DNA of 64,000 nt from Patescibacteria group bacterium (GCA_038063875.1 JBBTUH010000002.1:12530-76529), one strand, 5' to 3'. Counted from the stretch's first letter, positions 2,690 to 48,558 are shown. Notes: a model not told the origin generated them from the letters alone. Translations and numbers: made by a program.

Positions 2690-3656
2690 TACGCTCTATC
2701 TCTTCTGTAAGTGTAATCCCAAATTGCTCTTTCACTTTCGCTCTTGCGATCTCAATTAATTCTATCACGTCTTTTGCTGTCGCTTTTCCAGTATTCACGA
2801 TAAAATTGGCATGCTGGGGTGATATCATCGCACCACCCACCACAGTTCCTTTAAGCCCTACATGATCCAAAAGACGCCCCGCTGACATCGTACCATCAGG
2901 AGTAGATGCCAGAATCGCTTCAGATTGCGACAAATTACGAAATGTACATCCTGCGGTGAATACGCCTTGTGGTTGCGTATTTTTCCTATGAGCAATACTT
3001 TCGTTTGCAATAGCCCACAGTCTATCTTTATCGTAAGCCGTCAAAGCAAATACGACAGAAATCACAATATCATCGGTTGTTTGTAAACTACTCGTGTCGT
3101 AGGCGAAATGAAAGTACGACTGTGGGACTATCTTTTCTTCCCCTGTCTTGGTAACAATTCTTGCTTGATACACACAGTCACCGACATAGCCATTCGGATG
3201 CGTCCATTTAGAATTCATATACAAAGCACCCCCGACAGAGCCGGGGAGTCCCAAATGCATGTGAAGACCAGAAAGACCCTCATCTACCGTAAATCGCACC
3301 AGTAAATTTATCGGTACGCCTGACTCTGCTTCTACAAACACAGTCTTTTTTTCGATAGATCCTTGTTTTTGAGATTTGATTCCTTTGATGAGTATTTGTT
3401 TTGTTAAATTTCTTATAACCAGCCCTCGCACTCCTTTATCGCTAATGAGGATATTAGATCCTCCGCCAAGCATAAACACCGGCACAGAAAGTAACCGAGC
3501 GTGACTGACTGCCTGCAGTAATTCATCCGCGGTACGTGCTTCATAATACAAATCTGCAGGTCCACCAATTTTAAAGGTCGTAAGAGGACCTAACGGATGA
3601 TCTTCCTGTATTCTATCTCCTAAGATTTGTTTTAACTTTTGTAGTGATTTTGTCAT
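2676..3656 (-). CDS. murB: UDP-N-acetylenolpyruvoylglucosamine reductase
   Basis: 326 aa. FAD-binding N-terminus (TTFKIGGPADLYYEA...GGGSNILISD), typical MurB length and dcw context. Confidence 0.85.
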   Translation of the reverse strand: MTKSLQKLKQILGDRIQEDHPLGPLTTFKIGGPADLYYEARTADELLQAVSHARLLSVPVFMLGGGSNILISDKGVRGLVIRNLTKQILIKGIKSQKQGSIEKKTVFVEAESGVPINLLVRFTVDEGLSGLHMHLGLPGSVGGALYMNSKWTHPNGYVGDCVYQARIVTKTGEEKIVPQSYFHFAYDTSSLQTTDDIVISVVFALTAYDKDRLWAIANESIAHRKNTQPQGVFTAGCTFRNLSQSEAILASTPDGTMSAGRLLDHVGLKGTVVGGAMISPQHANFIVNTGKATAKDVIELIEIARAKVKEQFGITLTEEIERIGEF

Positions 3657-31785: not shown

Positions 31786-32721
31786 TCAAGTATCACAAGC
31801 AGACGTTTTAGTACATTTTTCCCCGTTTTCTTTCTTTATTGGTTGAGGGGATTCATATAAGGCTGTAAGGAACCGCTGAACTTGGAGATATGCCTGTGTT
31901 TTAACTTGTTCACGTAATTCTCCGACAGCTTCTTGAAAATCAGCGACCCAATTTGGCCCTTCTGCTTCTCTCGAGCGAAACTTGTCATGAATAGATTCGA
32001 TGGCTTCTTTAACCAACCCATGCGTGATAAACGGCTGAATTTCTTCCGCCACGGCAAAGGGACCGGATTTATAGTACAAGATCAAACTATGAATATCGTA
32101 GGCATCTTTTTGCTTATACCGAGAACCCACTACAATCCCTTTCATGGTCATGATGCCCACAATATCCGCCATCTTGACGGTAGTTCTACCCTCGGCTCCG
32201 TCGGGCAACTTGCCTTCCAGTATAATATCGATGGCATGATCAAACATTACATCAGCACCCCTAGCTTTTCTGACAAGAAAATCATCTTGAATTCGCTGGT
32301 GACGCTTGTTTTGCTCTGTTCCGCCATATTCAGGTCCTAAAAAATCAATCTGAACTTGTTCTTCCCCTTTGCTGGTTATCACATTTTTTACAAATGAATG
32401 CTGAATTGATTTCCCTTGTGAATCTAGTTTTGGCTCATACCCTCGTTGTTTGAGGATTGTGAGAATTGAATCGTATCCCGCTTCATTTATAAGTTGTGGA
32501 TTGACGGCGATATCAATATCCTTAGAACCAATATGTTTAAAATCCACACCAGATGGTTGGTACGCTTTCAATAGAAGATACGGAACCCAGCCTCCTACTA
32601 ACACCAAGCCATCACGATATGCACGGAGGGAAATCATGAGCTCAAGAAGGTATGACAACGAAACATCAGCAATGTTTGATGTAAATGTAATTTTTGTTCG
32701 ATCTCCTTGTTTTTGTGCCAT
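31786..32721 (-). CDS. putative nucleotidyltransferase (AbiEii/DUF1814-like fold)
   Basis: 311 aa. N-terminal VLVGGWVPYLLL...HIGSKDIDIAV resembles the hG[GS]...[DE]h[DE]h minimal NTase signature. A partner gene lies 9 bp upstream. Confidence 0.4.
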   Translation of the reverse strand: MAQKQGDRTKITFTSNIADVSLSYLLELMISLRAYRDGLVLVGGWVPYLLLKAYQPSGVDFKHIGSKDIDIAVNPQLINEAGYDSILTILKQRGYEPKLDSQGKSIQHSFVKNVITSKGEEQVQIDFLGPEYGGTEQNKRHQRIQDDFLVRKARGADVMFDHAIDIILEGKLPDGAEGRTTVKMADIVGIMTMKGIVVGSRYKQKDAYDIHSLILYYKSGPFAVAEEIQPFITHGLVKEAIESIHDKFRSREAEGPNWVADFQEAVGELREQVKTQAYLQVQRFLTALYESPQPIKKENGEKCTKTSACDT

Positions 32722-32729
32722 GGTTGTTG

Positions 32730-33830
32730 TTAAAAGCCCATCTTTTGCTCTCGCAAATGTTGGGCCTGTTCTGCTCCACGTGCCGGATTATTAAATAAGT
32801 CCATATATAGTTGAATATTTGATACCACAGGAGCCTTTTTCCCAGAAGGAGTAGATATCTGTTGTGTCTGATAAAAAACTCCTTCGTCGTAGGGAATATA
32901 TAGCTCAACATTAGCGCCATTTTCAACTTGTTGAAGACCGAGAAGTTTTTCCCAGTTTTCTAAATCACCAGATTGCTTAATATAAAACTGTAACTTTGTA
33001 ATTCCACGAATAAAGGGGGCAATCAGATCTGCGCCGCTAAAATACGATAAAGCAAATGGCAAGTTTTCAGCTTTCTCTAAAACAGAGGTAAGAAGTTCTG
33101 TAGGATTTTGCACGAAACTAAAAAAGGTAAACTTCTTTATTTTATAGGAGGGATATACTTTTTCCCACGCTTTTAGTAAAAAAACAGGATCCCTCAAAGA
33201 GAGCCTATCTTCTTGATTCCACTCGATTAATTCTTCTTCAATCATTCGATCCAATGTTTTGTGCGTTTGCCCTAGGCTAACGTTGGATTCTTCTGCTAAT
33301 TCACCTAACAGCCAAGTTTTTATCGGTTGAGTAAGTAATACACGAGTAATTCTGCTTGAAACTGGAGCAAAAAGATTTTTTAGCGGCACTTTTTGAACAA
33401 AAGGGTTTTTTTCAACAATTTTTTCGATATACAAAGAACCTTTTTTGAGATAGAAATTGCCAGCTAAATCCATAATTCCCACACCTTCTTCCTTAGCGAC
33501 TTGGCGAGCTTTTTCACCTATAAACTGTCCGGCAACAAAGGGTATGCTCCCAGCTTGAATTGCGTATGCTTTAACGTGACGGGCAACTTCTCTAAAACTA
33601 GCTGTTCCGCCTGTATATTTAACCTCAATAGCGACTTGATAATCCCTGCCTTCAACAGTGAGAATTCCTTGTGAATCAGGACTATTTGTGCCCATTGCTG
33701 GCACGACAAGACCCTCAAAAGCTAAACCCTGAGGAATACTGGCTGATAGTTGATTTATTATTGTCTTTTCGTTCATATAAGACTTTTCATTAAACAGTGA
33801 AAGTATATCAAATAGTGAAAATGATTGCAA
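32730..33830 (-). CDS. hypothetical protein with central winged-helix-like segment; putative partner/antitoxin of the downstream NTase (TTG start)
   Basis: 366 aa. The TTG start was confirmed by reading the codons. The central SSRITRVLLTQPIKTWLLGELAEESNVSLGQTHKTLDRMIEEELI looks like a wHTH. Confidence 0.35.
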   Translation of the reverse strand: MQSFSLFDILSLFNEKSYMNEKTIINQLSASIPQGLAFEGLVVPAMGTNSPDSQGILTVEGRDYQVAIEVKYTGGTASFREVARHVKAYAIQAGSIPFVAGQFIGEKARQVAKEEGVGIMDLAGNFYLKKGSLYIEKIVEKNPFVQKVPLKNLFAPVSSRITRVLLTQPIKTWLLGELAEESNVSLGQTHKTLDRMIEEELIEWNQEDRLSLRDPVFLLKAWEKVYPSYKIKKFTFFSFVQNPTELLTSVLEKAENLPFALSYFSGADLIAPFIRGITKLQFYIKQSGDLENWEKLLGLQQVENGANVELYIPYDEGVFYQTQQISTPSGKKAPVVSNIQLYMDLFNNPARGAEQAQHLREQKMGF

Positions 33831-36925: not shown

Positions 36926-38080
36926 ATGCAAAAGACTATGACAAACAACGCCGTTATTTATGTCAATTTTTCACAATATGATAATACAGGAAGAATACTT
37001 GATTATCTCACAGAGCGCTTTACCTATGTCCTTCACTTTTCCTTCGACCACTTGAGACTAAAAAACGGAAGAAAAACAAATCTTATTACCTTGTATCAAA
37101 AAGGCCACAAACCCAAACAAAACACGCTTTATTCTTTAAGAACTCCTCCATACCTACTCTTTTTATCACTTCCACTCGTCGGGATTCTTATGATATTTCA
37201 AACAATCAAACACTCAGTTCTTTTCAAAAAAACAATTGGACCTTCAGTATTTTTTACCGTAAACGCATTTCCAGCTATGATAGGAATCATACTTCGCACG
37301 ATGCACATCGTGACACACGTGCATTACTGGGTGTGGGATTATTTTCCTGTCAAAGGTCCCGACTGGACTCTTCAAATTATCCGATATACCTACCTCATCT
37401 TTGACATGATCGCGCTTCGATTATCCGATAAACTCATTTTTCCAAATCTTCGACAGTTGCGACTCAGAAAATCTCTACACGGTATCAAAGGCGATCATGC
37501 AATCATCCCATTAGGTTGCTCCAAACCAATTTTGTATTCATCGAAGCAAAAAAACGTTATAGGTTTTTTGGGCATGCTCAAATCGAGTCAAGGATTAGAT
37601 CTTATTTTGAGCTGCTTTGATCAAGTTCTTAAACACAATCCAAATATTCGATTAGAAATCATTGGGTCAGGACCTGAGGAAGAATACTTTCGCATGAAAG
37701 CTAAAAAATATGGTAATAAAATAAATTTTTATGGCTTCATCGAAAATCAAAACATGATCAATAGGATTGTACATCGATGGTTTGCAGGACTTGCGCCGTA
37801 TAAACCTATCATGGGAAATGAATCATATTTTGGAGATCCATCAAAAATTAAAGTATACCTAAGCCAAGGAGTGCCAATTATTACAACCAACGTCACAGAA
37901 TATGGGGCGCTCGCAAAAAAAAACAAATTTGGTATTACTATCGTGTATACAAATAAAGAATTACTTAAGGCGATTCAAACATTATACAAACAGCAGCGAA
38001 CATACCAGAAAAACGCATTACGCTTCGCATCATCGTTATATTATAAAAACCTCTATAAAACTCTCTTCAGATTCCCCTAA
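36926..38080 (+). CDS. glycosyltransferase (GT4-like C-terminal GT-B domain)
   Basis: The C-terminal half (IGFLGML...LEIIGSGPEEEY...YLSQGVPIITTNV) is GT1-domain-like. The N-terminal half has two hydrophobic segments. Confidence 0.65.
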   Translation: MQKTMTNNAVIYVNFSQYDNTGRILDYLTERFTYVLHFSFDHLRLKNGRKTNLITLYQKGHKPKQNTLYSLRTPPYLLFLSLPLVGILMIFQTIKHSVLFKKTIGPSVFFTVNAFPAMIGIILRTMHIVTHVHYWVWDYFPVKGPDWTLQIIRYTYLIFDMIALRLSDKLIFPNLRQLRLRKSLHGIKGDHAIIPLGCSKPILYSSKQKNVIGFLGMLKSSQGLDLILSCFDQVLKHNPNIRLEIIGSGPEEEYFRMKAKKYGNKINFYGFIENQNMINRIVHRWFAGLAPYKPIMGNESYFGDPSKIKVYLSQGVPIITTNVTEYGALAKKNKFGITIVYTNKELLKAIQTLYKQQRTYQKNALRFASSLYYKNLYKTLFRFP

Positions 38081-38656
38081 TTATACCCCAATAACCTCTC
38101 GCAATAAGTTTCCTACCGCACTGCCAAAAAGAGGTAAATATTTTTTTATTTTGTTTTTATCAAGTTCTTCCGTGTGCCACCCATGATAACTTTTTGTTTT
38201 TTTACCTCTCGATATTAAATACAACATATCCAAAACAGCTTTTTCCGGCTCGGCAATATATGTCCCTCCTACCAAGTTAAATCCAAAAAACAGTTCCGAT
38301 TTTATTTTTGAATACTCGCACACAACATTCTTCAAAATTATCCGCTTGGAATGTCTGGAAGTGGCAAGCGTCAGATTATACAGTCCCTGATCTATAATTC
38401 CATACTTTGATAATGCGCTTTCAAAGCTTATATAGCTTGGATAATACAGTTGCGTGGCAAGTTTTTCTACTTCAAACGCATGACCTCGCAGCATATACAC
38501 GCCCCTAGCTATTTGGATTAGGACGGTGGCGTCTTTTAACCTCTTGATAGCCGTATGGATATGCGTCTCATCGGGAAACAGTTTTTTTATATCAGAAATG
38601 TCAAAAACATCCTTCCCCAGCTGTTCTATTTTTTCGACAAGCTCATCTTTTCTCAT
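38081..38656 (-). CDS. AbiEi-like antitoxin/transcriptional regulator (type IV TA, AbiEi_4 N-terminal domain)
   Basis: GVYMLRGH...YPSYISFESALSKYGIID matches the AbiEi N-domain consensus (RGVY...P.aYISleSAL..hGl). 4-bp overlap with the upstream NTase. Confidence 0.55.
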   Translation of the reverse strand: MRKDELVEKIEQLGKDVFDISDIKKLFPDETHIHTAIKRLKDATVLIQIARGVYMLRGHAFEVEKLATQLYYPSYISFESALSKYGIIDQGLYNLTLATSRHSKRIILKNVVCEYSKIKSELFFGFNLVGGTYIAEPEKAVLDMLYLISRGKKTKSYHGWHTEELDKNKIKKYLPLFGSAVGNLLREVIGV

Positions 38657-39336
38657 AAAGCAAACTCCTCCAACACCTTACGATGATTTATTGGGATGAA
38701 TGGATTTAACCGATCCATCAGTTGTTTTTGGGTATACTTAAATTCTTGTTTTATCGCAAATGCCGTATGTAACTTTTGGTGTATGTACCATGCATCAAAT
38801 AAATCCCTAGGCTCTCTTCTTTCCTTCGTTTCCAAAATCTTTACTTTATCCTTTAAAATGGCTTCAATAGTATACACGTTACCAGAAACTTCAATATTAT
38901 TAAAAGGACTTCGCAGAAGACCTACAGTAGAAGCAAAATCTCCCACATTTTTATTAATTTCTACTTTTATGCCGATAGGTATGGGTTTAAATCCCACATC
39001 AAACACTATCTTGGCAAAAAATGTGTTGCGTTTATCATATATATCTTTTACTTTTACTTCAGGCATAATGCTTGATAATTTCTCTATAGTACTTTTAAAA
39101 GAAGCGTACGGAATGCTTTTGAGTAAAGAAAAATCTAAATCCTCGGAAAATCGAAACGAACCATATGCAAGACGCAAAGCCGTCCCTCCTTTAAAAACCA
39201 ACTCCCTCTCAAATGAAGATGTGAAAAGCGTATCCAAAATATACATCTGGTAGTGCTCTTTAAGAATATTGTCAGTAACCGTACGATATTCAACCGCAAG
39301 TTTTTCCGCCTGATCTTGTGTTAACATACTATACAT
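38653..39336 (-). CDS. nucleotidyltransferase AbiEii/DUF1814 toxin family
   Basis: ELVFKGGTALRLAYGSFRFSEDLDFSL is the diagnostic DUF1814 signature (kGGTAL...R.SEDlDf). Confidence 0.8.
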   Translation of the reverse strand: MYSMLTQDQAEKLAVEYRTVTDNILKEHYQMYILDTLFTSSFERELVFKGGTALRLAYGSFRFSEDLDFSLLKSIPYASFKSTIEKLSSIMPEVKVKDIYDKRNTFFAKIVFDVGFKPIPIGIKVEINKNVGDFASTVGLLRSPFNNIEVSGNVYTIEAILKDKVKILETKERREPRDLFDAWYIHQKLHTAFAIKQEFKYTQKQLMDRLNPFIPINHRKVLEEFAL

Positions 39337-39347
39337 AAATGTATAGT
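39328..39347. promoter_or_regulatory. 9-bp inverted repeat actatacat-aa-atgtatagt overlapping the AbiEii start codon; candidate autoregulatory operator
   Basis: Perfect palindrome read directly from the sequence. AbiE-type systems are negatively autoregulated at inverted repeats. Confidence 0.3.
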
Positions 39348-39375
39348 ACCCCTACATTGATTACAAGAAGCACTT

Positions 39376-40596
39376 TCAAAAATCAGCGAAGCGCGCAAGC
39401 GCTTTATCAAATTCATTTTCCCACGTATTTTCTTTTGCGAAATGAATGGAAGCCTCACGCATAGATTGATAAAGTTTCGGGGTAGTTAATATCTTTTGTA
39501 TCGCTTGTGCAAACGCTTCTTTCGTATCATCCACAAGAAGTCCTGCGCCTACCGCATGTATATCCTGCCCAAGCGGCGGCACATCCGTCGTAATCACCGG
39601 CAATCCCGCTGCTACATACGCTCGTATTTTTGTCGCATCACCATATTTTCGTGCGGATCCCTCTACGTTTTTATATGGCGCAAGAGCTACCTGAAACGTA
39701 CGAGCAAGGCTAGAAATTTTTTCTCTGTCTGCGATAAACCCATGAAATATGACGTTCTTACTAATTCCCAATGCTTTTGCTAATTCTTTTAATCTCTCTT
39801 CATTCGGCTCACTCCCACCAATAATATGCAAGATAACATTCGGTATTGTTTTAGCTACGATCGCTGTCGCTTGTACTGCGATATCCGGTCCATTTTCAAA
39901 TCCTAAGGTGCCCAAAAATACAAGAGTATTTTTTTTAATCTTCGTTATTGGCAATGCGTGTATTTGCTTAGGATACAACGCATTTGGCACATGAAGTACA
40001 GGCGCTGCTTTCAACGGATCTAAACCCGCTTTGATACGTGCGGGCATCATGGCTTTTGACACATCCCAAATGACATCAGCATGCATACAGGCCTGCCTAT
40101 CTAGCCAAAGATAAAGAGCATTAAACCAGTGAGAAACATATCGTCGTGGCGAATAATCCGACACATAATACACCACAGTTTTTACCCTTCCCAAACGACG
40201 AAGAAATACTCCCGCGAGCGCATTAATAGCTTCAAATCCGATAAAAAGATCAAACGGCTTCCTTGTTCTCAAACCTTCAACAATAACGGAAAGATAGTCT
40301 CTGATCTTAAACACTATTTGAGTCCCAGACGTATTTGAAAGCCACAATAAAGGAGAAAGAATTGTTAGGACAAATGCCGGCTCTTGAAATGAAACAAATT
40401 TTCCATCCTCATATACTTCTACGCGCGGATTTACAAAATCACTCCCCGGATATACCTGATCTATAAGTACCACTCGCTCAACTCTGGGTACGAAATAATC
40501 ACGCATCGGCTCCAAATTTCCATTGATAGGAAGCCTCACTCCATCTTTCCATGGTGAAAACGTAGCGATAAGGACATGAAAAGATTTATCTATCAT
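39376..40596 (-). CDS. glycosyltransferase family 4
   Basis: 406 aa. C-terminal VFLGTLGFENGPD...HIIGGSEPNEE...YVAAGLPVITTDV. Confidence 0.75.
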   Translation of the reverse strand: MIDKSFHVLIATFSPWKDGVRLPINGNLEPMRDYFVPRVERVVLIDQVYPGSDFVNPRVEVYEDGKFVSFQEPAFVLTILSPLLWLSNTSGTQIVFKIRDYLSVIVEGLRTRKPFDLFIGFEAINALAGVFLRRLGRVKTVVYYVSDYSPRRYVSHWFNALYLWLDRQACMHADVIWDVSKAMMPARIKAGLDPLKAAPVLHVPNALYPKQIHALPITKIKKNTLVFLGTLGFENGPDIAVQATAIVAKTIPNVILHIIGGSEPNEERLKELAKALGISKNVIFHGFIADREKISSLARTFQVALAPYKNVEGSARKYGDATKIRAYVAAGLPVITTDVPPLGQDIHAVGAGLLVDDTKEAFAQAIQKILTTPKLYQSMREASIHFAKENTWENEFDKALARFADF

Positions 40597-42595
40597 GCGC
40601 GCGAGATGTAAATAGGAATAGAAGTACTACGAATAATGTACTAATGGAAATCCACCTCCCCCATAGGTAATATCGACGTGGGGTAAATTCTATAATTACT
40701 TTGCCGTCCGCCATTTCTTGCAGCGCAAACGACATGATTCCAAAATTTTCTTTTTCCGGTGCTATTTTCTTTCCGTTTACAATCGCCTGCCACCCGTGAT
40801 GAAACGACTCCGACATCACAAGTTTTGTGGGTTGCTCTGTAATAACCTCTACCTCGTAATAATCATCAGTTATATTACGCCAGTTTAAAACTGTTCCATT
40901 TTCTATCCAAAAATAATCTTTTGATGGTGGTATTTCATACACTGCGACATCACCCGATTGAATTTTCGTAAGCCATGACACAGTATCAAGAACTTTCTCT
41001 ACATCATCTCTTTTTGTTTGACTATATTTTCTGTCATCGGTAAATATTTCTCCATACGGATCAAAGGGAACGATGATATACCGAATGCTCAAAGCATCCA
41101 ATTGATCTCTAACGGTCGCAATTTGCATCGCGCGTTCTAAAGAAGCGGCGTCAGTGGCGCCCAAAAGTGGTCCTGCTTCTATGGATAACTGATTTTGGGA
41201 AGTGAAGGTAAATCTGCTTTGTCGAGGAACCCACAATGTACGAAAAAATCCTTGTTCTTGAGACAACAATTGTTTTAATGCAATATACTGCTTGGGAACT
41301 TCTCGATAGGTAAATGTACCACCCAAGGCACCTACCATAGAAGGACGAATTAAAATCATCCAATACAATAAAAATACGACCGGAATAAGCCACACTAATG
41401 TAGCATAATATTTTTTTGTGACTTGAGTAATAAAATAAAGAGTAAACGGAATAAGCACGGCATACGAGGTCATAATCAGCACATAAAATTTCGTGGGGTC
41501 GCGAAACATCACAAAAAACGGGATATGCTCAAACAGCCACACGTACACCAAACCAAATGGCTCATTGGCACCTTTGGACAAAAATGCCCCGACTAAACCA
41601 AGTGTCGCAAATCCAAAAACAAATGCATTTTCTTTAATTTTTTTTGTAAAAAGTAAACTAGAAAACGCAAGGATCGGAAGAACGAGAAATTCAGGCTGCA
41701 AAAAATACGTTTTTCCAAACAAATTCTCTGGCCAATTAGGATGGAGAAGCGAAAGTGCGTGAGAAAAATCAGCAAAACTAAAAAATCGGAGTGCGGAAAT
41801 CGTCGTGTACGCACTTCCTAGTGTATCAAGAGTATTCTCTTTAAGAATCAACAGTGGCAACACCCAATAAAGATTTAAAAATATGCTTACTGCACCCGCC
41901 ACAATGCCAAATCGCAACCGTTTCCAAAATAATACAAGTCCATGCTCCTCAAAGAGACAAAGTATCCCCATGCTGATAGCTGAAAGGTATGCAATCCGAG
42001 GATCGAGAGAAATTTGCATTCCAAATACTGCCCCTAATATAAGAGTTGTTGTCCACGGATCTTTTGTACCACGAATAAATCGAAAAAATGCAATAAGCAC
42101 CCATGGAAATATCGACGCAGCATAAAACACCCCCATTTGCCCGCCACCTGTTACCATAAGCACGTAGGTATTCGTCGTCAAAATAAGTGATGCTATTGCA
42201 CGCATCCAGAGGTATGATCTTGGCACTATTGTCGCCATAAGCTGCCAGCCGCCGGTCGCTATAAAAATGAGGGGACACAAAAACCAAAATAGTTTATACA
42301 CGATTACCCATGGCAATCCACTTGCTACAGAAAGCCATGAAGAAATAAAATTATAGGTACTCAAAAAATACGACGGTGACAATCCCCCTAAACCTCCACC
42401 ATACCCACCTTGCCATGCACTAGACAACTGCGCCATCTCGTTTACCATTTCAGGAAATCGATACGACCAATCACCTCCAATAATTTCACCACCTGTAAAC
42501 CACGGTCTATATATAAAAATAAGAAATAACAAAACTAAAAATCCAACAAACACAGCTTTTCTATTCATACGACCCCATTTTTTATATATCTCCAC
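40586..42595 (-). CDS. polytopic membrane protein, GT-C-like (distant paralog of the two downstream giants; AftD/DUF3367- or YfhO-like architecture)
   Basis: 669 aa. About 12 N-terminal TM helices, an extracytoplasmic domain and a final C-terminal TM anchor. The N-terminal WFTGGEIIGGDWSYRFPE parallels the WLK.G.MDLGGDS.RLYFYDP motif of the paralogs. Confidence 0.5.
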   Translation of the reverse strand: MEIYKKWGRMNRKAVFVGFLVLLFLIFIYRPWFTGGEIIGGDWSYRFPEMVNEMAQLSSAWQGGYGGGLGGLSPSYFLSTYNFISSWLSVASGLPWVIVYKLFWFLCPLIFIATGGWQLMATIVPRSYLWMRAIASLILTTNTYVLMVTGGGQMGVFYAASIFPWVLIAFFRFIRGTKDPWTTTLILGAVFGMQISLDPRIAYLSAISMGILCLFEEHGLVLFWKRLRFGIVAGAVSIFLNLYWVLPLLILKENTLDTLGSAYTTISALRFFSFADFSHALSLLHPNWPENLFGKTYFLQPEFLVLPILAFSSLLFTKKIKENAFVFGFATLGLVGAFLSKGANEPFGLVYVWLFEHIPFFVMFRDPTKFYVLIMTSYAVLIPFTLYFITQVTKKYYATLVWLIPVVFLLYWMILIRPSMVGALGGTFTYREVPKQYIALKQLLSQEQGFFRTLWVPRQSRFTFTSQNQLSIEAGPLLGATDAASLERAMQIATVRDQLDALSIRYIIVPFDPYGEIFTDDRKYSQTKRDDVEKVLDTVSWLTKIQSGDVAVYEIPPSKDYFWIENGTVLNWRNITDDYYEVEVITEQPTKLVMSESFHHGWQAIVNGKKIAPEKENFGIMSFALQEMADGKVIIEFTPRRYYLWGRWISISTLFVVLLFLFTSRAHDR

Positions 42596-45500
42596 ATTCC
42601 ATACGATAGTAAACCGATTAATGCCATGGCACTTATGCTTGCACCAATATAAAAATATGATTGCATACTCATATACACTTCCAAATCATATTCACTCTGG
42701 CCATCGGCATCTTCAGGCTTTATATACCACGCGTTGGCATATCCATTCGCTTGAAAGTGACGCGTGTTCGCGATACCTTTACCAGAAGCGGCAAGAGAGA
42801 CGCGCCACCTGCGATTGTACGCTTCGCTTAAGCTTAATACGTATGGCCCATGCGCTCCAGTAACATGAACTTTATACATCGTCGGATTGACTTGAACAAA
42901 CGATATGGTAGGTGGCAAACCATCCTGATTCTGAATCTTCTTTGTAACCATCATGAGAGGATGCGGTACATGAACAAGCGATACGTTTTTAAGCTCAATT
43001 CGTGAAAGTGATAATTGATCAGTGGACGGAGATATCTGTACAAACCCAGTATTGACGTGCGTATTGGTCCGGACCACAGCTTGATACTGTTGCCATGTAG
43101 GGGATTTGAGCATATCTTCAACGATCGTACTTGTTCCGTCAGCCTTTTCAGGCTTTATCTGACTTTCTAGCATCCGGACGACAAACGGTTCCCCACTTGT
43201 CTTATAAGAAAATGTCAAAAGATAATAGCTTTGCGGCTGCCAATCATCAATTTTCCACACCAATCCTTTTGCACCCTTAATATACCGTGCGTCTATCGCA
43301 AAACTTGCTGAATCTGTAGCGGAAAGTTCTGATTCTAGCATCATTCTCGAATTATTCGTTAGCATATTTTGTTGTTCCATCAAAGAAAGACTCCCTTGAT
43401 CCAAGGGATTACTTTCTCCATGACTTACTGTTCCCAATTTTACCCATCGCTCTTTCAAATTCACAGGAACTTGGAAACGTGCATCGTTGATAGTCACAGA
43501 AAGTCGATCATGTACGTTATATGTACTCGTATCCACATACAGGTCGTATGGTCCCGCGTCTTTTTTGGGTAAAGACGCGCTATACGGCACTGTCAAATCG
43601 GAAAGATCCGCACGCGTCCTCTCGAGAAGATTTCCAAACATCATATCTGTTATTCCCTCAAGATAATCTCGATGTGAAACTATTGGGTCTCTATTTTTAA
43701 TCAACAGTGTTACACGCCGATAGTGCTGACGCAAGTATTCAGTCAAAAGAAATCTTTGCTCCGTCTTCCATAATAGCGACTGATCTGTGGTATCAATCAT
43801 TTTGATACTATCATCAAAATATCTATAGTAGCGTGCAAGCGTCGCCTCCCAACTGTTCATAGACATTCTCGATTCTTTATAGACAGTGTTAAAATCCTCA
43901 AGAGTGCGTAGCGTTCCCAATACCGGCATACTCTCACCAAAGCGTTCCAACTCAAGAATTCGCTTGGCAGATAAAAATGATTGTTGATCGATACGCGAAA
44001 AATAATTGGCTCTACCAAACTTCCATAATTTTACTTTTTCCTTCACCACTACCAACGGATATAAAAATGACGATGGCGACTGAGTCACAAACGCATGATG
44101 CATGATTCTCGGCGGATACGGATTTTTTACCATGGCAAGAAGATGGCTTTGCGATTCTGCAGGATAAAAACGAGCGTCAGCAAGCTCGACATCCTCCTCC
44201 TCAAAAAATACAGACGTATCAATAGTATTTGGCAAAACAGTCAATGGCACAGATGCATCGTTTAGTACGCGTGATAGAGAAAGTACATTGCTGGGAACAT
44301 ATACCCGAGGCACAACATCTTTATCATCAAGCGCATACACAAAAAATCGATTATCAAACGACTCTAAGAGTCGCAACGAAAGCGAATCGACAAACTGCTT
44401 ATATTCCTTCTGACGCTTGGGTAAATATTTTCTCACGTCATCGTAGGGAAACGCAGGAAAGGCATCGTACACCTGTGGATCGCTATTATAAAATATATAC
44501 TTGATATTTAAGATGCCCAGTATGCGCTTTACCATTGTAGTATCGTTATTGGCAGTTGCATCCAATAGAATTTCTCGATATCTTCCAAACTCCGCAGTAC
44601 CCGCAAAATCCTGCTTTCCCGCCAAATATGAAATCATCGATGGTCCTTGGTATGCCCCCTCACTTTTTCCAGCCACAATCTGATACCCTGGGTCCGTCAA
44701 CGGGAGCGTTACAAACTTTCCATCATTGGGCAATTGCCTGATGTATTCAAGTGCTTTTACAAATACTGGATCCATGTTCATCGCTATGCGACTATTAGTG
44801 GATTGCCATAAAATCGGGTTTGTTAAGGATCCATTGATAAACGGCCACGCATTGACAAAGAGTAAGAAAATAAATACTCCTAACCAAATCTTCACCTTTG
44901 GATACGCATTTATAATGACAAAAAGTGTCATACCAAAGACAAGAGCGTAATAAAACAAATACGCAGAAGCCCACTGCCCATAAAAATTTCTAAATATTGA
45001 AAATCCGGGAAGTATAAAAAGTTTTTTATACAGCGACAATCCCGCCTCACCTATATTTGCCGTAGCAAAAAAAAATATAGTCAAAAATCCTACACAAAAT
45101 ATTAGAAGCGTTTTTCTATATTTTTGTGGCTCTCCTGCTCCTCGTAACAAGCCAACTATCAGCGTAAACGGCACAAAAATCATAAAGAATAAAAATGTGG
45201 AAAGTTCTCTTGTCTGTGGTAGCATCAACACATTAATTGACGCCTTTATACTTGGTGCTATGGCCGAAAAGTACCCAAGTCCCCGATCATACTTCCCAGC
45301 GGCAGAAAACACAGACGTATACAAAACGCTCCCAGGAGTCACCATACTCGCAATTTGTGGCACTATATGAAATGCCTGAAGAAGTATAAATATAATACAT
45401 GCTACGCCAATCTGTTTCCAACGGATATTCTGACCCAATACCCATTGTTTATACATCAAAAGCAAGACAAGAGTTATCGGATAAAATGCAAAAAAAACCG

Positions 45501-46080
45501 GAGCCGCCGCAAAACTAAAATTGGCAGAAAATACAAAAGTCAGCAAGAGCGCACAGAAAAGATAATACAGTCGATCAGATACCATAAATCGCAATAACAA
45601 ATAAAACATAATAGGGTTAAGGAACACATGATTGTGCGTCATCAGCACCTTGTCCCAACCAAAAATAGAAACAGGGGAGAAAACATACAATAACCCTCCT
45701 GCCACCGCAGCAAACTCTTTTAATCTTTCACCTTTTGTAGCAGTATAGAGAAGTTGTACGATCGATAAATACACAAACAAAAAACTCATAGACACACTCA
45801 AACCATGAAATGCGCTTATTAATACCGTCGATGACACAAATATTCGCTTTGCTACCGCCAAAAAAGCCACAAATGGTATGGTCATAAAACCGATATTCTC
45901 CGAGCCTACACCAGAGGGAGAGACGGCAAATAAAGAATAATTGAGAAGATACCGAAGAGGATCATAAAAGTACAATCGGCTGGAATCACCCCCCAGATCC
46001 ATAAATCCAGGTTTGAGCCAAAAAAAAGGAAAGATAAAGAGAATAAGCGTAATTACAAAAGGAAGAAGCTTACTCCTCAT
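42565..46080 (-). CDS. giant GT-C-like membrane glycosyltransferase (AftD/DUF3367-like) with ~650-aa extracytoplasmic domain and C-terminal TM anchor
   Basis: About 1171 aa from the internal Met (MRSKLLPF) that aligns with the paralog start. The ORF track gives 46137. PGFMDLGGDSSRLYFYDPLRYL resembles the AftD N-terminal signature (PG....DTKLDL..NPLRFL). Confidence 0.5.
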   Translation of the reverse strand: MRSKLLPFVITLILFIFPFFWLKPGFMDLGGDSSRLYFYDPLRYLLNYSLFAVSPSGVGSENIGFMTIPFVAFLAVAKRIFVSSTVLISAFHGLSVSMSFLFVYLSIVQLLYTATKGERLKEFAAVAGGLLYVFSPVSIFGWDKVLMTHNHVFLNPIMFYLLLRFMVSDRLYYLFCALLLTFVFSANFSFAAAPVFFAFYPITLVLLLMYKQWVLGQNIRWKQIGVACIIFILLQAFHIVPQIASMVTPGSVLYTSVFSAAGKYDRGLGYFSAIAPSIKASINVLMLPQTRELSTFLFFMIFVPFTLIVGLLRGAGEPQKYRKTLLIFCVGFLTIFFFATANIGEAGLSLYKKLFILPGFSIFRNFYGQWASAYLFYYALVFGMTLFVIINAYPKVKIWLGVFIFLLFVNAWPFINGSLTNPILWQSTNSRIAMNMDPVFVKALEYIRQLPNDGKFVTLPLTDPGYQIVAGKSEGAYQGPSMISYLAGKQDFAGTAEFGRYREILLDATANNDTTMVKRILGILNIKYIFYNSDPQVYDAFPAFPYDDVRKYLPKRQKEYKQFVDSLSLRLLESFDNRFFVYALDDKDVVPRVYVPSNVLSLSRVLNDASVPLTVLPNTIDTSVFFEEEDVELADARFYPAESQSHLLAMVKNPYPPRIMHHAFVTQSPSSFLYPLVVVKEKVKLWKFGRANYFSRIDQQSFLSAKRILELERFGESMPVLGTLRTLEDFNTVYKESRMSMNSWEATLARYYRYFDDSIKMIDTTDQSLLWKTEQRFLLTEYLRQHYRRVTLLIKNRDPIVSHRDYLEGITDMMFGNLLERTRADLSDLTVPYSASLPKKDAGPYDLYVDTSTYNVHDRLSVTINDARFQVPVNLKERWVKLGTVSHGESNPLDQGSLSLMEQQNMLTNNSRMMLESELSATDSASFAIDARYIKGAKGLVWKIDDWQPQSYYLLTFSYKTSGEPFVVRMLESQIKPEKADGTSTIVEDMLKSPTWQQYQAVVRTNTHVNTGFVQISPSTDQLSLSRIELKNVSLVHVPHPLMMVTKKIQNQDGLPPTISFVQVNPTMYKVHVTGAHGPYVLSLSEAYNRRWRVSLAASGKGIANTRHFQANGYANAWYIKPEDADGQSEYDLEVYMSMQSYFYIGASISAMALIGLLSYGMWRYIKNGVV

Positions 46081-46424
46081 GCGGTTATCTCCCGCCACTG
46101 CGCAATAAGCCCAAGAGCCATAAACAATACTAGCCACACAGCAAATCGCTCAGTAGATATTGAGGCACTGCTTACAAGATACGATATCGCCATGACGACC
46201 AACAAAACAAAACATACTTGAAACACTCGTACACTCGTAAGCTTTCCTGTACGCGCAAAGAACCAATAAAGAAAAAGCCCGCCAAACAATCGCACATCTT
46301 TTGAAATTGGAAACACGAAGACTTCCGCTACAATAAGTATGGAGACGAATGCTAAAAACGTCAGTTGATTTTCATGAATCCATTCGCCAAACACCACAAG
46401 CATGTTTTGTGTTTTCTTAAACAT
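46077..46424 (-). CDS. small 3-4 TM membrane protein, unknown function
   Basis: 115 aa, hydrophobic. Wedged between two giant paralogs and abutting the corrected start of the downstream gene. Confidence 0.35.
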   Translation of the reverse strand: MFKKTQNMLVVFGEWIHENQLTFLAFVSILIVAEVFVFPISKDVRLFGGLFLYWFFARTGKLTSVRVFQVCFVLLVVMAISYLVSSASISTERFAVWLVLFMALGLIAQWREITA

Positions 46425-48558
46425 ATGTTTTTTGACGAATTGACATTAAAGCTAATACGATCAAAGATATCAAGGTAACACCCCACCCAATCCAAATATA
46501 TTTTTGGCTCTTGAGCCTTAAGGTCATAGTATAACTCTTTTTTCCTTCAAGATCATCTGTGGTGAATCGCCACGCATTCGCATAGCCATTTAGTTTGACA
46601 TGCCGATCCTCCGGCACGAGCGTGTTATCAACAAACAATTGCCAATTACGATTGTATGTATTATTCCACACTACTATATTTGGATGCGTATCCTTGGTCG
46701 TAAGCGACATATGATAGAAAACGGGACTTATCCGTGTCGCCATAAATTGCGCTTGACTATCTGGTGCACCCTCAAGCACATCGGTCACATACAATTCTGA
46801 TCTCCATACCGATCTGTCCAATTCATATATTACATACGAACCGTTTGTATAAATGCGTTTCGTCGGAAGCTTGTCTACAAACTCTTCATACCCCTTCTGC
46901 GTTTGTGGAAAAGATGTTTTCATGTATGTATATGGCGACTGTGGGAAACCTGCCTCATAAATAGCAGGATCACTGTTGTGGAAAATATATCGTATAGATA
47001 ATCGAGACAGCAAGCTTGTAATCGCCTCGTAATCTTTTTCCCGTGCATATTTCATCATATCCTCCGGAAATGGACCAAAAATCTGGTAGCCATTAAAATC
47101 TTTTTTACCGGTAAGCTGCGAAATCGTAGAAGTGCCTACATACGCACCGCCATTTTTACCGGCCAATACTTGACTATACGCATCCGTCAAGGGCAGCGTC
47201 AAAATTTTGCCATCATCCGGAAGCGATCGGATAAACGCTAATGTTTCTTCATATTTAGGATCCATGGCAAACGTCATACGTACATTATCTGACTGCGTAT
47301 GAATTTTATTCACCGTCTCCCCCTTTAGAAAAGGCAACGCACTGACTACCCAAAGCACTATGATTACTCCACCCAAATACGACATCCACCTGCGATATGA
47401 CAAATGCTTAATAATTACGTGTATCGCTAACCCTAAAAGTAGGGCATAAAAGAACGCATACACAGACGGCCACTGACCGATAAAATTACGAAACATCGAA
47501 AAACCAGGAATGTAATACAAATTTTTATAAAATTCTACGCCGACGTTGGTAATCTTGGCCGCGTAAAGATACAGAGTAACTAAATAAAATCCAGCAGTAA
47601 GAATCAAAACCTTACTTTTTGTATTCAAAACAAATCCTATCATGATAATGGTCGGCGCTATAAAACTCACCCAAGTAAGCTGTGTGACCATAGGTGTCAT
47701 AAAAATATCTTTTACGACACTTGCAAGCGGTAAAATGGCAGTAAAATACCGCACACCTTCATGCATAATACTTGTGCGATCAAACACTCGAGTATTGGTA
47801 AAGCTTCCGGGTTCAAAAAGATTAATAACCTGCGGCAGGAGATGAAATGCTTGAATACCCAAAAACAACAATCCTCCATAGAACATCCATCTCCATGGAA
47901 TTACTTTCCGGACGACAAACTTGGTGTAGAGCAGTAGAAACACTATTGACAAAGGATAAAACGCAAAAAACGGCGGAGCACTCGTAAGGGCGAAATTAGG
48001 CGCGAAGACAAAGCTAATCCATAGTGCGGCCCAAAGATATTTGACGTTGGTGTCTGTAAAAAACTTGAGGATCAAATAAAACATCAGAGGATTTAAAAAT
48101 ACTTGATTATGAGAGGTGAGCGCCTTGTCATAATTACCAAGCATAATCGGAGCTAAGATATAAAACATACCCGCCATAAGCGGGGCAAGTATACTTTTTT
48201 TTCTGATGACTTCCCTTACTATCCCATACATCGCCAAGAATCCAACGCTCAACTTAAGACCCGAAATAATATTGATTACAATCGTCGGAGACTGGAAAAC
48301 AAACCTCAGCACGGCAATCAGAGCTACATAGGGAAGATAGTACGTATTAGGCTCTGCAAGCCCAAGTCCTTCCGGCACAAAATGATAGAGGCTCACATTT
48401 TTGATAAAGGATATGGGGTCATAAAAATATAATCTCCCGCTATCACCTCCTAAGTCCATCTCGCCAGATTTCAACCAAAAAAATGGTATGGAAAATAAAC
48501 AGGCTGCAAATATCCAGTGAATATTTCGACCTATCCATTTGTATATGATCGTATTCAT
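46417..48558 (-). CDS. GT-C-like membrane glycosyltransferase (AftD/DUF3367-like), paralog of 42565-46080
   Basis: 713 aa. The N-terminal FWLKSGEMDLGGDSGRLYFYDPISFI is nearly identical to the paralog motif. Same TM-domain/extracytoplasmic-domain/C-terminal-TM architecture. Confidence 0.5.
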   Translation of the reverse strand: MNTIIYKWIGRNIHWIFAACLFSIPFFWLKSGEMDLGGDSGRLYFYDPISFIKNVSLYHFVPEGLGLAEPNTYYLPYVALIAVLRFVFQSPTIVINIISGLKLSVGFLAMYGIVREVIRKKSILAPLMAGMFYILAPIMLGNYDKALTSHNQVFLNPLMFYLILKFFTDTNVKYLWAALWISFVFAPNFALTSAPPFFAFYPLSIVFLLLYTKFVVRKVIPWRWMFYGGLLFLGIQAFHLLPQVINLFEPGSFTNTRVFDRTSIMHEGVRYFTAILPLASVVKDIFMTPMVTQLTWVSFIAPTIIMIGFVLNTKSKVLILTAGFYLVTLYLYAAKITNVGVEFYKNLYYIPGFSMFRNFIGQWPSVYAFFYALLLGLAIHVIIKHLSYRRWMSYLGGVIIVLWVVSALPFLKGETVNKIHTQSDNVRMTFAMDPKYEETLAFIRSLPDDGKILTLPLTDAYSQVLAGKNGGAYVGTSTISQLTGKKDFNGYQIFGPFPEDMMKYAREKDYEAITSLLSRLSIRYIFHNSDPAIYEAGFPQSPYTYMKTSFPQTQKGYEEFVDKLPTKRIYTNGSYVIYELDRSVWRSELYVTDVLEGAPDSQAQFMATRISPVFYHMSLTTKDTHPNIVVWNNTYNRNWQLFVDNTLVPEDRHVKLNGYANAWRFTTDDLEGKKSYTMTLRLKSQKYIWIGWGVTLISLIVLALMSIRQKTYV

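Follow-up and report, generated by a model that had tools for sequence, protein, structure and literature searches.

A Compact Toxin-First AbiE-Type Cassette in a Patescibacteria Genome and Its Candidate Promoter-Operator Block

Overview of the Cassette

In this work, we analyzed computationally a stretch of Patescibacteria DNA of 64,000 nt (hereafter the window; all coordinates follow its numbering). On its minus strand, from ~39367 to 38081, we found a self-contained toxin-antitoxin (TA) cassette of 1.3 kb that belongs to the DUF1814/COG5340 (AbiE/MenAT) superfamily and has the toxin gene first. We consider this explanation, with the mechanism and the operator proposed below included, to be probably correct as a whole. 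The features of the cassette are listed below.

38653..39327 (longest open reading frame to 39336), minus strand: toxin gene, a compact DUF1814/AbiEii nucleotidyltransferase (NTase), 224 aa from the conserved 'MLTQ' start and 227 aa at its longest
38081..38656, minus strand: antitoxin gene, AbiEi-type (COG5340-like), 191 aa, assigned by PADLOC profile and fold
38653..38656, minus strand: ATGA overlap of the toxin stop and the antitoxin start, read directly from the sequence
38665..38671, minus strand: GGAGGAG, Shine-Dalgarno-like, 8 nt 5' of the abiEi ATG and within the last codons of the toxin gene, read from the sequence
39327..39348, no strand assigned: palindrome TACTATACAT-tt-ATGTATAGTA (minus-strand reading), candidate AbiEi operator, from conservation across orthologs
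39338..39343, minus strand: predicted -10 hexamer TACATT, at -16..-11 relative to the conserved ATG
39354..39356, minus strand: conserved TGT in the promoter spacer, from position counts in orthologs
39361..39366, minus strand: predicted -35 hexamer TTGTAA (TTGACA in most orthologs), from the ortholog alignment

Toxin and Antitoxin Proteins

An earlier note on this DNA had described a 227-aa protein with a DUF1814/AbiEii motif, and the profile searches bear this out. The protein matches the Pfam family PF08843 (AbiEii; 76.6 bits, cut-off 22.5) and the PADLOC AbiEii profile (4e-24), and the motif FKGGTALRLAYGSFRFSEDLDF was confirmed. The AlphaFold model has a predicted local distance difference test score (pLDDT) of 95, and its nearest folds in the PDB are those of JHP933 (4o8s), MenT4 (6y56), and MenT3/TglT (6j7n). 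In an alignment of 35 homologs that are 56-80% identical, the residues G50, G51, R62, S64, D68, E126, K164, and R177-D178-L179-x-D181 (R177-D178-L-F-D181 in the window) are invariant, while E65 and D66 are near-invariant.

The four motifs of DUF1814 pol-beta-type NTases, namely, I (hGG), II (R..DxD), III (K), and IV (+DxxD), are all present in the toxin. These motifs are essential in Streptococcus agalactiae AbiEii (Dy et al., PMC3985639). Within R62-F-S64-E-D66-L-D68, residue S64 occupies the R-x-[S/T]-x-D-x-D position of T65, which is the phospho-acceptor of S. agalactiae AbiEii (bioRxiv 10.64898/2026.01.19.700257); the phospho-acceptor of MenT3 is S78. Throughout the family, this site is always a Ser or a Thr (PMC11375011). 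Judged from its sequence, gene 1 encodes a compact AbiEii-type NTase with every catalytic motif intact. An identical protein is on record from Patescibacteria (candidate phyla radiation, CPR) assemblies of Hainich groundwater, with a length of 224 aa in the NCBI call.

The 191-aa product of the second gene had been proposed to be AbiEi-type and translationally coupled to the NTase by 4 bp. Both parts hold: the coupling is the ATGA at 38653..38656, and the protein matches the PADLOC AbiEi profile PDLC02241 at 1e-30 over residues 11-178. A match to TAA_AbiEi of NCBIfam was also found (1e-13), although its 51 bits are below the cut-off of 150, and the top 25 PADLOC matches are all named AbiEii or AbiEi. 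The AlphaFold model (pLDDT 82) has the H-H-H-E-E topology of a winged helix-turn-helix (wHTH), and the top Foldseek matches are S. agalactiae AbiEi (6y8q; E 2.6e-5) and Rv2827c (1zel). The HMMER comparison suggested in the earlier note gave a divided answer: PF08843 was matched at the score given above, but the AbiEi families PF13338 and PF17194 remained sub-threshold (E 0.048 and 0.22, respectively). Because of these sub-threshold Pfam scores, the AbiEi identity needed the PADLOC profiles and the comparison of folds. On the predicted model and these profiles, gene 2 encodes a two-domain AbiEi-type protein that has an N-terminal wHTH and a C-terminal domain.

In three contigs of the same species, the AbiEi open reading frame (ORF) is shortened, and the toxin gene is intact (L002 6681-7189, 128 aa; L003 3846-4385, 179 aa; L006 1078-1572, 164 aa). 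Their alignment to contig L001 opens 3-6 gaps per 2.5 kb, and two of the contigs are at ~3.6x coverage. The truncations are probably assembly indels rather than true losses of the antitoxin.

Orthologs and Gene Order

A search of species-representative genomes and metagenomes identified ~80 orthologous loci. Their hosts are Patescibacteria, Anaerolineae, Atribacter, Caldisericia, and one Deltaproteobacterium; the cultured carriers among the Anaerolineae are Flexilinea flocculi, Leptolinea tardivitalis, and Pelolinea submarina. The NTase gene had been said to precede its partner, in reverse of the canonical abiEi-abiEii order, and this was found in the window and in all of the orthologous loci, none of which has the regulator first. 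An AbiEi homolog is located 3' of the toxin gene in every orthologous locus where downstream DNA is present. The overlap between the two genes is the identical 4-bp ATGA in 40 of 44 distinct loci. These sequences form a compact lineage, with a toxin of ~224 aa and an antitoxin of ~190 aa, in which both the order of the genes and their ATGA overlap are fixed. The GGAGGAG that precedes the abiEi ATG is restricted to the Patescibacteria clade (9/44 distinct loci).

The more distant paralogs, which are larger and either adjoin some of these loci or are carried by plasmids and viral contigs, are mostly antitoxin-first. Paralogs in the canonical order adjoin the loci L011, L047, L079, L090, L094, L096, and L098.

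Conserved Candidate Promoter-Operator Block

Upstream of the toxin gene, 47 distinct orthologous regions from several phyla were aligned on the invariant 'MLTQ' start. They have in common a block with a sharp 5' boundary at 40 nt upstream, which reads cTTGACA-N4-(A/G)TGT-N5-TAGTATACATT(A/T)ATGTATACT-ATG. The layout is that of a promoter, with TTGACA as the -35 hexamer, a 17-bp spacer, and TACATT as the -10 hexamer. Conservation across orthologs sets in one base 5' of the -35 hexamer, at 39367, and no conservation was found at -50..-41 among the 47 regions. In the -35 region, the counts are T at -39 in 47/47, T at -38 in 45/47, and G at -37 in 44/47; in the -10 hexamer, T, A, A, and T are near-invariant. 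The frequency of the majority base in the block is 0.89, compared with 0.57 at third codon positions and 0.42 further upstream, and is level with that at second codon positions. In the Leptolinea ortholog (L017), a scan calls TTGACA-17-TACATT as a sigma-70-type promoter with 10/12 matches. A second, nested promoter-like match, ATGTCA-18-TATACT, is located at 2980-3009 of the same locus and ends at the toxin ATG; transcription from it would begin within the toxin gene.

An inverted repeat, actatacat-aa-atgtatagt, lies within this block at 39328..39347. One more pair on each side extends it to a 10+2+10 palindrome (39327..39348). The repeat that the earlier note reported over the NTase start codon is therefore real, with arms of 10 bp instead of 9 bp, but the start codon that it overlaps is the upstream ATG, and only its last base touches the conserved start. 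Four elements fall within the palindrome: the -10 box, the transcript start as predicted, the upstream ATG that is not conserved, and the A of the conserved ATG.

Within the window, this palindrome is unremarkable. Three perfect 9-bp inverted repeats with spacers of <=4 nt were observed, the nested one included, compared with 1.6 +/- 1.3 in dinucleotide-preserving shuffles, and the palindrome core has one exact copy only. We took the palindrome as real because it is conserved in orthologs, not on in-window statistics. The presence of the palindrome in orthologous loci is confirmed by the 47 distinct upstream regions, which have compensatory changes in both arms. Complementarity was found in 93.6% of the arm-pair cells, and double (compensatory) changes number 18 against 5.4 expected, a value reached in 0/500 shuffles. 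Four pairs have changed on both sides, and the pairing signal is lost when the partner columns are slid. The variants include C..G in the window, G..C in most loci, A..T, TGTACA, and TATATA. Arm mismatches are balanced between G.T (17) and A.C (13), which argues for a double-stranded DNA site that is recognized symmetrically rather than a strand-specific RNA hairpin. The palindrome is thus conserved at a place that suits an operator, and, by analogy with characterized relatives, it is probably the binding site of the antitoxin.

The spacer of the promoter contains a further conserved element. Its TGT is present at 40/47, 43/47, and 40/47 for the three bases (85-91%), and, joined to the ACA of the -35 box, it makes up ACA-N4-TGT, which is also the core at the center of the palindrome. 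This element may be a second and weaker operator half-site.

Two distant toxin-first relatives have palindromes of their own at the equivalent place: in L032, a different palindrome forms a 20-nt inverted repeat that ends 5 nt before the ATG, and L091, on a Xanthobacter plasmid, has a perfect 9-bp inverted repeat 20 nt upstream. Such differences are as expected if the operator and the wHTH co-evolve. Elsewhere in the window, the sole other perfect 9-bp inverted repeat with a 2-nt spacer (GTATAAAAAGTTTTTTATAC) is located at 45012..45031, inside a 1190-aa ORF that has no Pfam match.

The alignment also revises the start of the toxin. The upstream ATG at 39334..39336 is part of the right arm of the palindrome and is ATG in 39 of the 47 orthologs; in six, this position has a non-start codon (ATA, ATT, AGT, or ACT). 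The ATG of 'MLTQ' (Met-4, i.e., the fourth codon of the longest ORF, at 39325..39327) is invariant. Because Met-4 is invariant and the upstream ATG is missing in 8/47, we took the toxin to be 224 aa, and it would be translated from a near-leaderless message.

Proposed Regulation and Mechanism

The proposed mechanism draws on characterized relatives. MenT toxins nucleotidylate the 3' ends of tRNAs, and S. agalactiae AbiEii modifies tRNAs with UTP or CTP (for AbiEii, bioRxiv 10.64898/2026.01.19.700257). By analogy, the toxin would add nucleotides to tRNA 3' ends and arrest translation. AbiEi induces the phosphorylation of AbiEii at T65 (bioRxiv 10.64898/2026.01.19.700257). Here, the C-terminal domain of the AbiEi-type protein would neutralize the toxin, probably by inducing auto-phosphorylation of Ser64, with R62-x-S64-x-D66-x-D68 as the counterpart of the T65 context.

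Both AbiEi and Rv2827c bind inverted repeats that overlap their promoters and repress their own expression (PMC3985639; PMC7319586). In a similar manner, the wHTH of the antitoxin would bind the 22-bp palindrome as two symmetrically placed copies. From the geometry of the promoter, which is predicted to be of the sigma-70 type, the palindrome overlies both the -10 box and the start point of the transcript, and antitoxin bound there would turn both genes off (negative autoregulation). The same geometry places the transcript start ~3-5 nt before the conserved ATG, which would result in a near-leaderless toxin mRNA. The antitoxin would then be produced by re-initiation at the ATGA, aided in the window organism by the GGAGGAG ribosome-binding site. 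Most orthologs would rely on ATGA re-initiation, since they are without the GGAGGAG.

Alternative Explanations

Several observations weigh against this reading. In addition to the sub-threshold Pfam scores of the antitoxin, the promoter of the window itself (TTGTAA-17-TACATT) is a weak match, with 8/12 positions, and falls under the scan threshold. In the window clade, an AGGGG precedes the first ATG by 12 nt, such that translation could still begin there and yield the 227-aa form. A further two distant toxin-first loci, L092 (Ammonifex) and L093 (a viral contig), have no palindrome on their upstream side, and no clear co-variation between the palindrome variants and the wHTH recognition helix was seen in a comparison by eye. 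Autoregulation is also not universal among AbiEi-type antitoxins, since Rv1044 does not bind its own upstream region (PMC7319586). What we propose on the operator, the leaderless mRNA, and Ser64 is, for the compact subfamily, inferred throughout.

Two of these points favor an alternative in which the conserved block is a strong portable promoter or a host-factor site, AbiEi does not bind it, and regulation is confined to the protein level, as has been proposed for MenA3/Rv1044. These are the behavior of Rv1044 and the lack of a palindrome upstream of L092 and L093; moreover, the -35 and -10 boxes account for part of the conservation. However, promoter elements account neither for the near-invariance of the right arm, located between the -10 box and the ATG, nor for the compensatory changes that occur symmetrically at the outer arm positions. 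A host factor common to Patescibacteria, Chloroflexota, Atribacterota, and Caldisericota is unlikely, and the sole constant companion protein of the site is the wHTH antitoxin. We regard this alternative as unlikely, though it is the one that survives best.

The palindrome could also act as RNA, as a hairpin at the 5' end of the toxin mRNA that hides the upstream AUG or the start region and exerts translational control. The arms do co-vary, and some loci have G.T combinations that are able to pair in the sense RNA. Nevertheless, the near-equal G.T and A.C counts reveal no strand asymmetry, and the loop would be just 2 nt. In addition, the arrangement of the -35 box, 17-bp spacer, and -10 box puts the left arm 5' of the predicted transcript start, such that the hairpin would not be transcribed from the promoter of the cassette. 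This explanation was rejected on the lack of asymmetry between G.U and A.C and on the position of the left arm, and we give it a very low probability.

A decaying remnant without activity would fit the shortened AbiEi ORFs in the three same-species contigs described above. Yet those contigs are low-coverage or indel-rich, and five others are identical or differ by substitutions only. In 32-35 homologs, no variation was found in any catalytic residue or in the antitoxin core. Decay thus has only a slight chance of being the explanation.

The least credible alternative, that the palindrome is a recombination or integration site that mobilizes the cassette, for example of the Xer/dif type, agrees with the mobility of the cassette but was rejected, given that the conservation 3' of the ATG tracks codons with synonymous third positions (TTA/TTG/CTG/CTA), such that no second recombinase arm is maintained, and that the cassette has neither a matching element at its 3' end nor an accompanying recombinase gene. 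This alternative was considered because, by eye, the right arm and the start codon resemble the central region and the XerD arm of Escherichia coli dif.

The reading that we prefer remains an antitoxin-bound operator on the promoter of an active TA pair.

Mobility and Genomic Contexts

Among the orthologs, conservation extends from -40 to exactly the abiEi stop codon, and neither terminal repeats nor a conserved 3' end of the cassette were found. The earlier note had suggested looking for the same embedded position in related genomes, but no ortholog outside the species of the window shares the flanking genes, which have no homology in any of those loci. The neighbors elsewhere are mutually unrelated and include MutY, a Schlafen-like helicase, HlyD, a relaxase-like protein, ribosomal protein S2 with a topoisomerase, TyrRS, and others. 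Because the flanks are unshared, the neighbors are diverse, and the conservation ends at the abiEi stop, the cassette is, as far as these comparisons of sequence go, horizontally mobile. For carriage on known plasmids, phages, or viral contigs, searches of PLSDB, INPHARED, and IMG/VR found only distant relatives with <=33% identity.

Among the closest Patescibacteria relatives, sugar and glycan genes surround the cassette in all three independent contexts (L010 4253-6619; L013 907-5551; window 26000-51000). These neighbors include a DegT aminotransferase, a sugar-1-P nucleotidyltransferase, glycosyltransferases of the GT2 and GT4 types, methyltransferases, and an acetyltransferase. In other phyla, the neighbors of the cassette are unrelated.

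In related Patescibacteria, the cassette is bracketed by direct repeats of 59-63 nt that are 69-87% identical and copy the 5' end of the downstream GT2 gene (L011 1305-1363, 2899-2957, and 4271-4329; L013 2900-2962 and 4273-4335). The loci L011 and L012 have three tandem AbiE pairs, two antitoxin-first and one toxin-first, with one copy of the repeat after each. This arrangement looks like an array of TA cassettes at one insertion hotspot. The metagenome-assembled genomes that contain L010, L011, L012, and L031 are titled 'uncultured Gammaproteobacteria bacterium', and their cassettes are 80-81% identical to that of the Patescibacteria, with similar glycan-type neighbors. These records suggest mislabeled bins or a recent transfer.

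In the window, the cassette is located between two convergent GT4 genes, which occupy 36926..38080 and 39376..40596. The -35 box is 10 nt from the stop codon of the upstream GT4 gene, and at the 3' end of the cassette there is no spacer at all: the convergent GT4 and abiEi stop codons abut at 38078..38083 (TAATTA), with zero intergenic bases and no room for a terminator. Two further features were identified nearby.

39379..39404, minus strand: terminator-like GC hairpin and T-run, in the last ten codons of the upstream GT4 gene, from a scan
31786..33830, minus strand: the pair called 'AbiE module #1' in the earlier note, a 348/366-aa wHTH protein and then a 311-aa protein, from borderline profile matches

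The terminator-like hairpin may insulate the cassette from upstream transcription, although the scan found two such sites in the region against 1.4 by chance, which is near the chance expectation.

The earlier note had counted two AbiE modules within 7 kb. The toxin-first one is confirmed as described above, but module #1 is only weakly AbiE-like. Its wHTH protein matches AbiEi_2 (PF09952) at 27.9 bits with the longest ORF only, and the match is lost with a shorter start. The 311-aa protein has a sub-threshold match to NTP_transf_8 (E 0.011) and, by eye, an NTase-like GG...DIDI motif, and no PADLOC AbiE match was found for either protein. Module #1 may be a regulator-first pair of the COG4861/COG4849 type.

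Adjoining the cassette, at 40586..48558 on the minus strand, are three large ORFs (669, 1190, and 713 aa) that have no Pfam family. Precomputed annotation gives only a faint hint of YfhO, for a fragment of the first (669 aa). These ORFs are probably membrane proteins of the glycan locus.

Taken together, these patterns may describe a compact toxin-first subfamily whose 1.3-kb unit crosses phyla together with a built-in promoter-operator of 40 bp, in which the palindromic site of the antitoxin takes in the -10 box and the transcript start and reaches the first base of the start codon. In this joint reading, the toxin mRNA would be near-leaderless and the antitoxin made only by ATGA re-initiation, a layout unlike those of characterized AbiE/MenAT promoters. 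In Patescibacteria, such cassettes would build up preferentially in glycan loci; at some sites they would form tandem TA arrays, with repeated 5' fragments of a glycosyltransferase gene on either side. We put this combination forward tentatively, with slightly less than even confidence.

Comparison With Known Systems

The cassette is a real but ordinary module, and the toxin-first order is already known from RlegTA, SanaTA, and SdenTA and from RefSeq annotations. What this work adds is the conserved promoter-operator architecture and the corrected start codon; AbiE/MenAT biology as known is unchanged. Most public records list the antitoxin of this compact subfamily as a 'hypothetical protein', and such pairs are probably under-counted as AbiE, which gives the finding a modest value for annotation. 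In the literature searched, we found no mention of the conserved promoter-operator block. This block provides an easily tested hypothesis for the regulation of toxin-first AbiE systems, and the three cultured carriers (L. tardivitalis, F. flocculi, and P. submarina) make the mapping of transcript starts feasible.

The AbiE systems of Lactococcus lactis and S. agalactiae share with the cassette the DUF1814 NTase motifs I-IV, the R-x-[S/T]-x-D-x-D context, a two-domain antitoxin (wHTH and C-terminal domain), a 4-bp gene overlap, and an inverted repeat on the promoter. In AbiE, the regulator precedes the NTase (Dy et al. 2014, PMC3985639), whereas the gene order in the window is inverted and the toxin is shorter (224 aa). 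As its candidate operator, the window has a single compact palindrome (10+2+10) that covers the -10 box and the transcript start, whereas AbiE has two 23-bp repeats that are 3 bp apart. Likewise, the toxin mRNA is predicted to be near-leaderless in the window, in contrast to a transcript start 26 bp upstream in S. agalactiae.

The M. tuberculosis MenAT systems (MenT3/Rv1045; MenT4/Rv2826c with Rv2827c) share the toxin fold (6y56 and 6j7n), the antitoxin fold (1zel), and the conserved Ser/Thr phospho-acceptor, and Rv2827c autoregulates through inverted repeats. Unlike the cassette in the window, these mycobacterial systems are antitoxin-first and have larger proteins, and the identity is only 13-17%. 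The Ammonifex degensii plasmid pADEG01 has the same gene order, with a toxin that RefSeq annotates as AbiEii/AbiGii family followed by an 'AbiEi family antitoxin domain-containing protein', but this toxin is 28.5% identical and larger (288 aa), and no palindrome was found upstream of it.

RlegTA, SanaTA, and SdenTA are toxin-first DUF1814/COG5340 pairs as well, with RlegA downstream of RlegT (Sberro et al. 2013, as summarized in bioRxiv 10.64898/2026.01.19.700257). Experiments have established all three as TA pairs, and partial resistance to T7 is conferred by SanaTA and RlegTA. As described in that summary, these pairs share with the cassette a DUF1814 toxin gene upstream of a COG5340-like antitoxin gene; the subfamily of the window differs in that it is found mainly in Patescibacteria and Chloroflexota.

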